From: Bdellovibrionales bacterium
GTDB taxonomy: Bacteria; Bdellovibrionota; Bdellovibrionia; Bdellovibrionales; JAUICD01
Assembly (NCBI GenBank): GCA_965197425.1
Contig: CBDANC010000014.1
Span: forward strand, 317,662 to 381,661
Reading direction: 5' to 3'
Length of the DNA: 64,000 nt
In this document: positions 38,807 through 43,339 of the stretch, piece after piece
Layout of the letters: every line of letters begins with the position of its first letter
Position numbering within the stretch: position 1 is the stretch's first letter
Translations under genes and position numbers: made by a program
The notes under the pieces: generated by a model
The model's database searches: none
What the model saw: only the letters and a program-made list of their open reading frames with translations
What the model was told of the DNA's origin: nothing

Positions 38807-41800
38807 TCAGTGTTGAGTTCTCAGCGCTTTTGCAGTTATTGCATTGGAAACTGTCGAGAGATCTAAAGGAGCAACACCTAAATCATGATATTCAGAAACA
38901 TACTTGATTGTATATTGAAGTGACTCAGTTGCATCTACAAAGGTACCGTACTTGTAGGGTCCACCAAGTCTAATTGACCTATCAGGATCTGGATCACTGT
39001 TAAAACAGTATCCGTAGCCCAGAGAAGTCCAGATGCCCACAGAAGTGTCTTCGTTACCACAAAGCTCGGCTCTTAAAATTTCTCTGTCAGCACTAAATAA
39101 AGGAATAAACTGATCAAGTCTGCCATAAGACATTATAGTCGAAATTGGTTCATCACTAAACTGTCCTCCATATCCATACCCAAAACCAGTAGCAGTAGTA
39201 CCAGGACGTGTTAATGATTCTGGATTTTTCCTATTGATTTCCACCAACGAGTCTATATCATGGCTCAGACCTAAAACATGCCCAATTTCATGTGCCATGA
39301 GGGTACTGACAAAGGAGGTTCCGACTTTAGTCTGGATATCAGAAATACCATTAAGATCAAAAAAATTATGGCGAGTGCCTACAGTTGCATAAGACTCCCA
39401 TCTAGGAACTGCATAATAACTGGTTTCTCCTGCTGGTGGCAGGAGAGATGCGTATGAATTATTGTCGGGGATCATTGAAATAACTATATCAGCATGATGT
39501 TTTTTACGGATACTTGGAATCAGCTCTGAAATTGCTACTTGGTCACCGTAAAGATGTCCCCATCCAAGACGCCCTTCTCTTTTCCTCGCAATAACCAAAT
39601 TATCTAAAGAAGGAAGATCGCAAAGCAAATATTGCTTGTATTCAGAAAAGAAACTAATGTTCGAAGCTCTAAACTCAACATTTACACCGGATTCTTGAAA
39701 CACCTTGCTTACGCGTTCAAGAAGGGTGTTTTTAAGGTAGCCTCTCCAATCACCACTAGCTTTCTCTAAATAAGAGTCGGAAATAACAAACGCAACATCA
39801 ATAATATATCTAGTAGCAGGATCTGCTTTTTCGTACTGAGGTGTTTCGTCGTCATTTGCACCGTCAAAAGCAATGTTGTCTGGCAAGTGTGAAAAGGATT
39901 GAGCTATATCTGTTCCACAAGCAAAGTGATCCAGCACCTCTTCATCATTATATCGATCATGATACTGATCATAACTTGCAGCAGACTGCCTGTATTCCAA
40001 ATCACAAGAAGTCGCATTGTAGTACCTAGCACCAAATTGCCCATGGTAAAATGTTGTTGTGTCTTCTAAATAAGAATCAACAGAACTACTATTTGTAATC
40101 TTAGATACATCAGACCTTCTAGCAAAATTTTTAACTATAATATTGTAATGTTCATAGTAGCCATATGCTAGTTGATCATAAATCTTTCCCTCCCATGTCC
40201 TAGGATCATATGGAGACTCTATGGTAATAATGGTCTTACCACTTGTGTGACTTACTGACACTAAATCTAATCCCATAGGCCCATTTGTGCTCACATAATC
40301 GACATCATCATGAGTCTTTCCAGAAATCTCAATCATTTCTAGAATATCTTCCTTGGTAATCTCCTGCCATTCACCAGAGTTGGATAAATATACAACCTCT
40401 GAATCAAAATAAATCTTTATAACTTCTGTCGGATCCCAGGTTGATTCAATCATCTCCCTCCCTCCTCTTGGAGTAAAGGTATACACTACCTGAGGAATCC
40501 TAATGCAATCTCTTGTACCATCATCATAAGTTAACTCAAAATATCCAGAAGCATCCTCTTCACACAAAGTGCTAATATTAGGGGTTGAAAATGAAGAGTA
40601 TTCTTTGTTTATTGATGCAAGGTAGTCTTCTGTGTTGGTAGCATCTAAGACTTTCGAGACGTTTAAAGAACTGGCATAGTTCTTTACCTTTACTGAATAA
40701 CTTCCAGCAGGATAACTTGAAATTGGAGTTAAGATAAAAAATGAGTTCTCATCTTCTTCAACTCCAGCTTCTATGCTAAATCTAAATGTACTAGTTAACA
40801 GATTTGTTCCGTTTGCATTTAACTCTATCATATTTCTTGCAAAAGCAGCTGTAAGACCTTCATATCTATCAGAATCTATATAACTTACTCTCCCATCAAA
40901 GGTTACTTTTATAGAGTGATCTGATATTGTAGATGTGTCTGTTGTTACATTACCTTCACTATCAAGATAACTAATAGTAGGGGAGATAAGCTTAATACAG
41001 TCTCCTGCAGTATCATCATAAGTTAACTCAAAATAACCCTCATCTCCTCTACCACAAGGAGTTTGGATATTAAAAGATTGTTCTTGGTTAATTATAGTTA
41101 GATAACTTTGGGTATTATTACTTGCTAAAATTAAGTCTGCATCATCAGTTTTTGCATAACCACCTACAGACAGTGTATACATGCCAAGCTCATATCTATT
41201 ATCATTAGGAGGGTTTATAGTAATAACTGTGCTTGAATTACCAGCGGAGTTTCCGCTAGATTCTGTGACTGATACTTGATCTTCACCAATAGGACCATCT
41301 ACACTTACAAGATCAACACCTGCGCTGTTAGTAATTTCAACCATTTCTAAGATATCTGATTTAGTTAGACTACTAGATGTGGATACTCCACCCGTGGCGG
41401 TACCATCTCCTATATACACTATCTTAGAATCAAACTCTATTTGTATTATTGTAGCAGGATCTCCATTATGTTCAGATGAGCTTTCTTCATTTGATGTAAA
41501 GGTAAAGCTTACCTGAGGAAGTTTTATACAACTGGTAGTCAAATTATCATTGGTTAGCTCAAAATAGCCAGGTTCATTATTAGTACAAGAAGTTGGTATT
41601 ACAGGAACTGTAAAAGAAGATAGAGAGTTGGACATATTACTAATTGTATTAAGATACTGAGCTTTATTAGTACTAGTAGCTATCTTAGATATATCAGCCT
41701 TTTTAGCATAATTACTTACACCAACTACATAATCTCCAGCAGGATAATTTGTGTCTGGTTTTAGAGTAAAGGATGTCTCATCACTTGAAATCTCTATAGT

Positions 41801-43339
41801 AAAACCAAAACCAACATCTAACAGATCTGTATCGCCTAGCCTAACATCCATCATTTCTAATATATTTTCTTCTGATAAGTCTGATTGCTCAGACTCATTA
41901 ATAAAAGATACAGGCTCTTCGAAACTTACCTTTATACTATGATTTGTAATTGTAGATGTGTCTTCTGTAAGGTTACCTTCTTCATCCAGATAACTAATAG
42001 TAGGAAGTATAAGCTTAATACAATCTGTCAAACCATTCGTATTTCTTAGCTCGAAGTAACCATCCTCTCCTCTACTACAAGGAGTATGTACACTAAAGGA
42101 AGATAAGGACTGTGACATACTATTAACCCTGCTAAGATACCCAGCTCTGTTAGTAGCATTTGCAATCTTAGATATATCAGCTTTCTTTGCATAGTTACTT
42201 ACACCAACCACATAATCTCCAGCAGGATAAGTGGTTACACCACTCGTATTTGTTTCTGGAGCTAGAGTAAAAGATGTCTCATCACTTTCTATCTCTATAG
42301 TAAAACCAAAACCAACATCTAAAAGATCTATGTTTCCTAACTTTATATCAACCATCTTAACTACATTCTCGGGAGTTAAGTTTCCATGGTCAGTAGCATC
42401 GATAAAGCCTACAGCCTCTTCAAAGGTTATTTTTATAGAATGATCTGAGATATCATTTGTATTTGTAACAACATTACCTTCACTATCAAGATAACTAACT
42501 GTAGGAGGATCTATGAGTTTTATACAGTTACTAGCACTGTTAGTACCACTTGAGCTAGTTAGCTGAAAATATCCTGGCTCTCCCCTAGTACAAGGAGTCT
42601 CTATTATTGGATCAGGATCTGGTTCTGTAACATCACCACATGAGGATAAACCAAGAGTAGCTAGTATTAACATAGCTCCACTAAGAACAGGCTTTATCCT
42701 AGAGGCTACTACACGGGTGGTGTAACCACCATTTGGTCTTACTAAATTTCTTACCAGCTTTAATCTCTTAATAGGAGTAAAAGAAATAAGAAGTCCTGCT
42801 ACGGAAACTCCGCTGGTGACTGAAAATGTAGAGCTTCCTTCGTTAGATAATGTGGGATTATTAGAGTTTTGAGCTTGAACATTGGAATTGTTTAAATCCA
42901 AACTCTCTAGGGCAGAACTACCATAAGACTTGTAGTCACCTTCACCAGTATTACTAATATTTACGGGTGGAGTATCCACACTGAAGCCAAGGGTGTTACA
43001 AAATGACCTGTTGGTATTTGAATTAGAGGAACATAAAGATGATACAAATTGAAGGATGCTTTCAGTACAACCTTCAGTATCAATTAATAAATTTCCATTA
43101 GAATCTATCTTTTGTAGTTTATCGAAGAATTCCTGTGAAGACAGACTGGTTGCTTCTATTTTAGTAACTTCCTGTAAGATGTCACATGAAGACACTGCAC
43201 TTTGTGCTAATCTAAGATCAGTTATACTAGGATCTGTGAAACTAGTCTGTGCATTAGAATTAATTGAAAAAACAAAAAGAAGCAAAAAACATACACGGGT
43301 GGTGTAACCACATAACTTATGTTTTAATAAACTTCTCAA
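38807..43339 (-). CDS. giant surface protein: signal peptide, five tandem ~165-185-aa modules, C-terminal reprolysin-type zinc metalloprotease (metzincin) domain
   Basis: TTG start with AAGGAG 8 nt upstream. Signal CFLLLFVFSINSNA-Q. Modules open at C250, C421, C585, C762 and C926 with C-x3-[ED]-x-GYF[EQ]L...CI[KR]. HEIGHVLGLSHD (nt 39257-39292) and a downstream IMSYG Met-turn candidate. Confidence 0.8.
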   Translation of the reverse strand: MRSLLKHKLCGYTTRVCFLLLFVFSINSNAQTSFTDPSITDLRLAQSAVSSCDILQEVTKIEATSLSSQEFFDKLQKIDSNGNLLIDTEGCTESILQFVSSLCSSNSNTNRSFCNTLGFSVDTPPVNISNTGEGDYKSYGSSALESLDLNNSNVQAQNSNNPTLSNEGSSTFSVTSGVSVAGLLISFTPIKRLKLVRNLVRPNGGYTTRVVASRIKPVLSGAMLILATLGLSSCGDVTEPDPDPIIETPCTRGEPGYFQLTSSSGTNSASNCIKLIDPPTVSYLDSEGNVVTNTNDISDHSIKITFEEAVGFIDATDHGNLTPENVVKMVDIKLGNIDLLDVGFGFTIEIESDETSFTLAPETNTSGVTTYPAGDYVVGVSNYAKKADISKIANATNRAGYLSRVNSMSQSLSSFSVHTPCSRGEDGYFELRNTNGLTDCIKLILPTISYLDEEGNLTEDTSTITNHSIKVSFEEPVSFINESEQSDLSEENILEMMDVRLGDTDLLDVGFGFTIEISSDETSFTLKPDTNYPAGDYVVGVSNYAKKADISKIATSTNKAQYLNTISNMSNSLSSFTVPVIPTSCTNNEPGYFELTNDNLTTSCIKLPQVSFTFTSNEESSSEHNGDPATIIQIEFDSKIVYIGDGTATGGVSTSSSLTKSDILEMVEITNSAGVDLVSVDGPIGEDQVSVTESSGNSAGNSSTVITINPPNDNRYELGMYTLSVGGYAKTDDADLILASNNTQSYLTIINQEQSFNIQTPCGRGDEGYFELTYDDTAGDCIKLISPTISYLDSEGNVTTDTSTISDHSIKVTFDGRVSYIDSDRYEGLTAAFARNMIELNANGTNLLTSTFRFSIEAGVEEDENSFFILTPISSYPAGSYSVKVKNYASSLNVSKVLDATNTEDYLASINKEYSSFSTPNISTLCEEDASGYFELTYDDGTRDCIRIPQVVYTFTPRGGREMIESTWDPTEVIKIYFDSEVVYLSNSGEWQEITKEDILEMIEISGKTHDDVDYVSTNGPMGLDLVSVSHTSGKTIITIESPYDPRTWEGKIYDQLAYGYYEHYNIIVKNFARRSDVSKITNSSSVDSYLEDTTTFYHGQFGARYYNATSCDLEYRQSAASYDQYHDRYNDEEVLDHFACGTDIAQSFSHLPDNIAFDGANDDETPQYEKADPATRYIIDVAFVISDSYLEKASGDWRGYLKNTLLERVSKVFQESGVNVEFRASNISFFSEYKQYLLCDLPSLDNLVIARKREGRLGWGHLYGDQVAISELIPSIRKKHHADIVISMIPDNNSYASLLPPAGETSYYAVPRWESYATVGTRHNFFDLNGISDIQTKVGTSFVSTLMAHEIGHVLGLSHDIDSLVEINRKNPESLTRPGTTATGFGYGYGGQFSDEPISTIMSYGRLDQFIPLFSADREILRAELCGNEDTSVGIWTSLGYGYCFNSDPDPDRSIRLGGPYKYGTFVDATESLQYTIKYVSEYHDLGVAPLDLSTVSNAITAKALRTQH
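40010..42598 (-). repeat. five tandem coding modules inside the 1,510-aa gene
   Basis: Recurrent LLDVGFGFTIEI.SDETSFTL ... YPAGDYVVGVSNYAKKADISKIA blocks. Modules 1 and 2 are the most similar. Alternating LI.PT.SYLD and PQV.(Y/F)TFT subtypes. Confidence 0.7.

Follow-up and report, generated by a model that had tools for sequence, protein, structure and literature searches.

Secreted metzincins with immunoglobulin (Ig)-like repeats, such as CpaA and StcE, are bacterial tools acting on host glycoproteins. In CpaA of Acinetobacter (MEROPS M72; PMC7542363, PMC6299215), four tandem Ig-like repeats come before a C-terminal metzincin domain and contribute to its substrate cleft (PMC7542363). The glycoprotease needs a membrane-anchored chaperone, CpaB, whose tail enters the active site (PMC7542363), and PDB entry 6O38 holds the two together. 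We describe a gene of this kind in a 64,000-nucleotide (nt) stretch of a Bdellovibrionales contig (CBDANC010000014.1; the whole stretch is hereafter called the window). Its product, P0001, has 1,510 amino acids (aa) and shares with CpaA the order of Ig-like tandem repeats followed by a C-terminal metzincin domain. Our best explanation, to which we give a probability of about 0.8, is that P0001 is an exported, probably lipid-anchored and active zinc endopeptidase in which the last Ig-like modules and the catalytic domain would make up a single unit, the modules helping to bind substrate as in CpaA. The kind, a metzincin with Ig-like repeats, is already known; new are the module, an N-terminal domain (N-domain) with an internal lipobox behind it, and the exchange of a protease cassette between phyla.

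The gene is real, intact and well defined. It is an open frame of 1,510 codons plus stop that starts with TTG, 8 nt behind a strong Shine–Dalgarno box (AAGGAG), and short-read contigs built from a public run with an independent assembler tile it without an indel or a joint inside the frame. The frame and its protease part are placed as follows.

38807-43339, minus strand: whole open reading frame (ORF) of P0001, 1,510 aa and stop
39080-39829, minus strand: metzincin catalytic domain, residues ~1171-1420, with HEIGHVLGLSHD at 1350-1361 and Met-turn M1403 (Pfam, profile, model)
39257-39292, minus strand: zinc motif HEIGHVLGLSHD, residues 1350-1361 (sequence)
39131-39133, minus strand: Met of the Met-turn, M1403 (sequence, alignment of relatives)
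39845-39982, minus strand: acidic linker, residues ~1120-1165, modelled as disordered (predicted local distance difference test, pLDDT, <50), with the unpaired Cys1141
38810-39079, minus strand: C-terminal subdomain and conserved tail (ending in VAPLDLSTVSNAITAKALRTQH), residues 1421-1510 (alignment)

An earlier note, made from the sequence alone, had proposed a C-terminal reprolysin-type metzincin, had located its zinc motif exactly and had offered IMSYG as the candidate Met-turn, and each of these proposals held up. The extended zinc motif HEIGHVLGLSH spans residues 1350-1360 and an Asp, D1361, comes right after the third His; the catalytic residues H1350, E1351, H1354, G1357, H1360, D1361 and M1403 are all intact, the last lying in STIMSY, 43 residues past H1360. 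Most of 39 aligned relatives have the motif HE.GH.LGL.HD in common, with D after the third His in most and N, S or P in a few. In their Met-turn (G-T-I-M-S-Y) the Thr two before the Met is invariant, and the Met itself is kept in at least 90%. Over residues 1179-1416, Pfam gave Reprolysin_5 at 29.0 bits (cut-off 27) and Reprolysin_4 at 25.4 (cut-off 22). Reprolysin_3 stayed below its cut-off in P0001 (19.2 vs 22.4), with the relatives scoring higher on it (down to 4.9e-10), and matrixin and DUF4953 'Met-zincin' were further weak matches. When the profile of the 39 relatives was compared with the PDB, snake-venom adamalysins came first (E 4e-5), then ADAMTS-5 and ADAM33, and later serralysins (3e-3) and matrix metalloproteinases (8e-3).

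The predicted structure points the same way. An AlphaFold2 model of residues 760-1510, computed with the alignment of the 39 relatives, reached a mean pLDDT of 85.5 and a predicted template modelling score (pTM) of 0.83, and only residues 1120-1165 fell below 50. Likely disulfides in this part join C1112 to C1240 and C1427 to C1445. Searched against the PDB with Foldseek, this model retrieved the 6O38 (CpaA) chains first (E 5.6e-7), followed by acutolysin A, TM-1/TM-3, ADAMTS4/5, ADAM8, ADAM33, adamalysin II and others, these later matches with probability 1.0 and a target template modelling (TM) score of 0.5-0.65 (0.62-0.65 on 1bud, 1kug, 4j4m and 2aig). By profile and model, the catalytic domain is a predicted reprolysin-like metzincin. 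It shares with the adamalysins or reprolysins (M12B: snake-venom metalloproteinases, ADAM and ADAMTS; Pfam Reprolysin_3/4/5) the HExxHxxGxxHD motif with Asp after the third His, the Met-turn and a superposable catalytic fold. To judge from its sequence it is not a classical M12B member, since P0001 lacks a match to Reprolysin proper (PF01421, at E up to 1), has no Pfam match to the M12B propeptide and no disintegrin domain, and carries a T-I-M-S-Y rather than C-I-M Met-turn. Further differences from M12B are the lack of a cysteine-switch domain and the larger size of the catalytic domain, ~250-330 aa against ~200. The Tyr after the Met-turn of P0001 recalls astacins and serralysins; it is not conserved in the family.

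The likeness to CpaA is one of architecture and shape. Although CpaA is the best Foldseek match, the TM-score on it is only 0.28. No sequence similarity was detected, CpaA stands outside the 60 best profile matches among PDB sequences, and a single-module search gave no match of the P0001 module to the CpaA repeats. CpaA is moreover a soluble substrate of the type II secretion system with its chaperone in a separate gene, whereas P0001 has the N-domain and the lipobox fused in one ORF. On the other side, the cleft that CpaA builds from its repeats and catalytic domain fits both the compact model of P0001 and the joint inheritance of its module 5 and protease, to which we return below.

Two parts flanking the catalytic domain deserve mention. 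The only candidate for a cysteine switch is the unpaired Cys1141, which in the alignment is confined to the four closest relatives; that its linker acts as a cysteine-switch-like latency element is pure conjecture. The last 22 residues (VAPLDLSTVSNAITAKALRxxH, 38810-38875) are nearly invariant in the closer subfamily, in low-GC and Gemmatimonadota forms; distant members lack them and have C.PGSC or a transmembrane segment as their end, or stop right after DASNYS. This tail may be a sorting or regulatory signal.

The protease is preceded by a series of repeated modules.

42080-42592, minus strand: module 1, subtype A, residues 250-420 (motif, module hidden Markov model, HMM)
41588-42079, minus strand: module 2, subtype A, residues 421-584 (motif, module HMM; own model, pLDDT 94.5)
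41057-41587, minus strand: module 3, subtype B, residues 585-761 (motif, module HMM)
40565-41056, minus strand: module 4, subtype A, residues 762-925 (motif, module HMM, model)
40070-40564, minus strand: module 5, subtype B, residues 926-1090 (motif, module HMM, model; inherited together with the protease)

The five module starts of the earlier note (C250, C421, C585, C762 and C926) were recovered exactly by a search for C-x3-[EDA]-x-GYF[EQ]L, and an HMM made from the five modules gave 206-243 bits per copy. With the 1-9 copies found in relatives, which precede the protease in the full-length ones, these scores place the repeat far beyond chance. The description needs one correction: the modules (~165 aa) fall into two subtypes in the order A-A-B-A-B. 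Subtype A ('PTISYLD…'; modules 1, 2 and 4) is 46-65% identical internally, subtype B ('PQV.FTFT…'; modules 3 and 5) 43%, and A against B 23-32%; modules 1 and 2 are the most alike (65%), all other pairs ranging from 23 to 47%. The modules had been reported as an unrecognised family, and so they remained in our searches: Pfam matched them neither in P0001 nor in P0028 or P0033, which have at least seven copies each. A derivation from diverged Big_2 domains was rejected, as hhalign against the Big_2 units of the same protein family gave a probability of 0.1% and no Big_x model of Pfam matched P0001. Modelled alone with 46 module sequences (pLDDT 94.5), module 2 opens with a beta-hairpin that the two conserved Cys close, contains a beta-sandwich and has three helices, a short one inside and two at the C-terminus. 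No PDB entry matched it in Foldseek at E ≤ 0.001, and its best fold matches were all Ig-like or E-set sandwiches: CopC (5e-3), the S-layer protein SbsC, the Ig-like domain of LdtMt1, and nanobodies. The Ig-like or beta-sandwich fold that the earlier note had put up for testing is therefore borne out by the model, and we regard the modules as predicted Ig-like domains of a new sequence family.

The N-terminal part is more complex than the signal peptide directly followed by modules that had been described. The signal peptide does fit signal peptidase (SPase) I, and ~200 residues, comprising the N-domain and a lipoprotein-type signal, come between it and the first module.

43250-43339, minus strand: SPase-I type signal peptide, residues 1-30 (…SINSNA|Q; sequence, with a comparable AxA|Q leader in all N-domain relatives)
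42815-43249, minus strand: conserved N-domain, residues ~31-175, ~145 aa, with four Cys (C52, C91, C103, C114; HMM)
42770-42820, minus strand: second hydrophobic segment (h2), residues 174-190 (VTSGVSVAGLLISFTPI), a candidate stop-transfer helix (hydrophobicity)
42689-42769, minus strand: basic loop, residues 191-217, with 8 K/R and no D/E (composition)
42638-42688, minus strand: internal lipoprotein-type signal, residues 218-234 (PVLSGAMLILATLGLSSC), with lipobox LSSC and Cys234 (conservation, homology)

The signal peptide combines a basic n-region, the core VCFLLLFVFSI and SNA|Q. Most family members likewise have Gln at +1 of the predicted cleavage (NA|Q, AHA|Q, VNA|Q, SYA|Q), which recalls the 'Q-rule' known in Bacteroidetes (PMC5837995). 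An HMM of the N-domain matches at least 20 family members, and no relative of this domain was found in Pfam or in the PDB; since the N-domain searches returned solely proteins with this family's modules, we rejected the idea of a general export module that serves other cargo. All three hydrophobic peaks of the N-terminal region recur in the closest relatives. That of h2 is conserved in the three closest, and the motif AGxLFxLxP[VI]KKL recurs family-wide. Across 27 distinct members, the basic loop has on average 6.2 K/R and 0.04 D/E.

The sequence KRLKLVRNLVRPNGGYTTRVVASRIK-PVLSGAMLILATLG-LSSC234, followed by GD, matches the lipobox pattern [LVI][ASTVI][GAS]C, and the order of basic n-region-like loop, hydrophobic h-region and lipobox (PVLSGAMLILATLGLSSC234-GD) is the textbook pattern of a lipoprotein signal in all but its placement: it occupies residues 218-234 and is preceded by a separate signal peptide and a domain of 145 aa, and is not at the N-terminus. 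The lipobox is L[SAT][SA]C in 26 of 27 distinct members, some of them ~30% identical overall, and Asp stands at +3 in 26 of 27. The segment is near-identical between proteins with ~33% overall identity, a conservation far beyond what is usual for signal peptides. In Gemmatimonadota and Longimicrobiales metagenome-assembled genomes (MAGs), we found related lipoproteins with a stalk of Big_2 domains (e.g. MCY4573079.1, annotated only as 'Ig-like domain-containing protein'), in which the homologous segment, LSCGDxGTEP, sits at the true N-terminus; the segment of P0001 is for this reason a real lipoprotein signal by descent. An internal translation start just before the lipobox is unlikely: the sole in-frame start is the ATG of M223, inside the hydrophobic segment, with a GGAG only 2 nt upstream, and initiation there would leave no basic n-region.

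These Big_2-stalked proteins are related to P0001 in the protease part too. They share with P0001 the B module, the linker, the catalytic domain and the C-terminal tail (53-66% identity) as well as the lipobox context SCGD..TEP. They differ in having no N-domain, in a stalk of 2-5 Big_2 domains in place of the new modules, and in their GC-rich genomes (60-64% vs 37%). Altogether a phmmer search with residues 760-1510 against 1.84 billion representative proteins found only 59 relatives, and a search for literature on the family gave none. Within the family the architecture of signal peptide, N-domain, basic loop, internal lipobox, 1-9 modules and protease is conserved. Related loci lie in a Gemmatimonadetes MAG from a sponge (L001), a Longimicrobiales MAG (L002) and MKWU01, an Aplysina aerophoba sponge metagenome (L003), all with 60-64% GC, and on a circular, low-GC (35%) contig of 1.6 Mb (L004). 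This contig and another of 1.24 Mb each carry five or more paralogs. Just downstream of the protease gene of L001 (7936-12609) is a gene for a protein of 1,557 aa that combines Big_2 domains with leucine-rich repeats (LRRs); such a protein is eukaryote-like and typical of symbionts. The Longimicrobiales copy (L002, 8369-12125) is split by a frameshift near 11355 into two different frames, 8369-11359 and 11379-12125, which points either to a pseudogene or to an error in the long-read assembly.

The catalytic domain, the best-conserved part shared with distant relatives, does not follow the history of the N-terminal part. While the N-terminal parts of P0001, P0004 and P0005 are 81-87% identical to one another, the three group with different Big_2-type sequences in a tree of catalytic domains, with branch supports (SH-like approximate likelihood ratio test, SH-aLRT) of 98 for P0001 with P0007/P0024, 99 for P0005 and 93 for P0004. 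The identities by region show the same conflict.

N-domain, module 1 and module 4 of P0001: 79-87% to P0004/P0005, low to P0007/P0024
Module 5 of P0001: 71% to P0004/P0005, 76% to P0007
Catalytic domain of P0001: 47-50% to P0004/P0005, 65-66% to P0007/P0024

Because the tree and these identities conflict with the N-terminal parts, the sequences indicate that the last B module and the protease form a cassette that has been exchanged, more than once, between GC-rich Gemmatimonadota and a lineage of low GC. Modules 4 and 5 meet close to the breakpoint, and at the same place the GC content at third codon positions (GC3) makes a step: it rises from 0.16-0.24 to 0.25-0.33 at residue ~850-900. Taking this step as a mark of foreign origin was rejected, as the C-terminal part has a GC3 that is normal for the window (0.268 ± 0.032) and the unusually AT-rich stretch is the module region; with the C-terminal part inside that range, composition is silent on the direction and age of the exchange.

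In our preferred explanation, P0001 would be exported by Sec, its three hydrophobic segments inserting in the order start, stop and start. Under the classical start/stop/start scheme and the positive-inside rule, neither the N-domain nor the module–protease part would then be in the cytoplasm; both would lie outside it. Cys234 would be lipidated and would hold the protease by its lipid anchor on a membrane. The last modules would pack on the catalytic domain and help to bind substrate like the Ig-like repeats of CpaA, with the earlier modules serving as spacer or as additional binding sites; the view of modules and catalytic domain as one unit is favoured by the pTM of 0.83 for the three-domain chain and from the joint inheritance of module 5 and protease. 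As substrates, our best guess is proteins or glycoproteins outside the cells of a eukaryotic host, with a marine invertebrate as the probable host, given the sponge-associated relatives, the eukaryote-like LRR neighbour in L001 and a 700-aa ankyrin-repeat protein in the window (10702-12804, Pfam). Several points weigh against this explanation. The Reprolysin_5 and Reprolysin_4 scores are marginal, just above the cut-offs. Reprolysin proper does not match, and a single-sequence search of the PDB yields only ADAM33, at E 0.08. We deduce the geometry of the zinc site and the contacts between domains only from model scores. The lipobox lies 234 residues into the protein, a position at which Lgt and LspA are not known to work, and the Asp at +3 (+2 in many relatives) could mean inner-membrane retention and not surface display.

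The unusual position of the lipobox also leaves room for a reading that extends the preferred explanation without contradicting it, namely that P0001 is the precursor of two products. Cleavage by LspA at the internal lipobox, after Sec export, would yield a periplasmic N-domain anchored in the inner membrane and, apart from it, a protease that is a lipoprotein. The N-domain would then act as the protease's own chaperone, inhibitor or sorting partner, in the manner of CpaB for CpaA. We consider this possible and hold it tentatively. The nearly invariant lipobox with its Asp, the basic loop without acids, the homology to a true N-terminal lipoprotein signal and the conservation far beyond that of usual signal peptides all argue for it, as do the confinement of the N-domain to proteins with this family's modules and the fact that the best structural match, CpaA, depends on a membrane-anchored chaperone with its tail in the active site (PMC7542363). 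Yet h2 has only ~13-17 hydrophobic residues, marginal for a membrane span, and the hairpin may be a plain uncleaved membrane anchor. Our search for literature on internal lipoboxes found none, and we know of no precedent for processing by Lgt and LspA at an internal site. Spelled out in full, as two signals in one ORF, the scheme is somewhat more doubtful still: the Sec signal would export the Cys-rich N-domain, the stop-transfer segment and basic loop would return the chain, the internal lipoprotein signal would re-start export, and the cut by Lgt and LspA would release two products, with the N-domain CpaB-like. No chaperone-like gene adjoins P0001, the neighbours being lipB and a convergent gene for a giant pilin-like protein.

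This last neighbour had inspired the proposal of the earlier note that P0001 is a surface protein, a protease displayed on a long flexible stalk and paired with the pilin-like protein, one adhering and the other cutting. The two large genes for exported proteins do adjoin, side by side between glnS and the lipoate and 2-oxoacid dehydrogenase genes, and both products have a host- or prey-facing composition. Against pairing, tblastn found a relative of the pilin-like protein in 0 of 6 related loci (L001-L006; the loci of the closest relatives, P0004, P0005 and P0006, are not among them). Relatives of P0001 have different neighbours, such as an LRR protein, a paralog in tandem, a transposase or a restriction system, and the two genes of the window converge on a hairpin that is terminator-like on both strands.

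38680-38717, no strand assigned: terminator-like hairpin between the two convergent genes (sequence)

Because they converge on this shared hairpin, P0001 and the pilin-like gene look like separate transcription units. The stalk is doubtful as well: modules 4 and 5 were modelled together with the protease as one compact body, which argues against flexibility, and the last module has been inherited along with the protease. We recognised no signal in P0001 for sorting to the outer membrane or the surface. The evidence for a surface location reaches as far as export, probably followed by lipid anchoring. We therefore hold the stalked and paired surface protease to be unlikely. Less likely again is a P0001 that works mainly as an adhesin or binding protein with a vestigial protease domain, although the family offers examples of such loss. 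HExxH is missing from five family representatives (P0025, P0027, P0045, P0046 and P0049). In L004, a first copy (3575-7921) that looks active, with HELGHNLGLSHD (HELGH) kept, stands in tandem with a degenerate one (8001-12224; P0025) that reads ARQLGFNLGLNND and, with the motif lost, is a pseudoprotease. Members with the N-domain, one module and no protease also exist (P0082). In P0001, by contrast, every catalytic residue is intact, and it is the catalytic domain that is best conserved towards distant relatives.

The P0001 family may be the counterpart of CpaA and StcE in symbionts of marine invertebrates, and its expansion to at least five large paralogs per contig, on contigs of 1.2-1.6 Mb of which one or more is circular, indicates that it is important for that lifestyle. 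No database model covers the module or the N-domain, each of which is a domain family by itself, and the protease cassette common to a low-GC lineage and GC-rich Gemmatimonadota is a clear case of domain-level exchange between phyla. The deeply conserved internal lipobox offers a handle on whether the lipoprotein pathway acts inside a polypeptide; if it did, this would be a new route to two extracytoplasmic proteins from one bacterial gene.

The locus holds three further peculiarities. A palindromic box of 18-20 nt with the core GTGGTTACACCAC occurs in frame at 43292-43311 and 42710-42729 and inverted at 42231-42250, encoding GGYTTRV in two places and SGVTTY in one. Compared with P0004, copies 2 and 3 are insertions of 6 aa, and the window has no further copy at up to 3 mismatches (chance expectation 0); the box looks like a small templated or mobile in-frame insert. 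In a second run of the same sample (X2), contig pieces mapping to 40545-40644, 41926-42159 and 42788-43122 are 95-99% identical to the N-domain and modules 1, 2 and 4, and none covers the protease part, so they could come from a co-occurring strain or a paralog with another C-terminal cassette. In the spacer between P0001 and the convergent pilin-like gene, the contigs of both runs have 27 other letters in place of 127 nt at 38652-38780, hairpin included, which makes this a structural variant.

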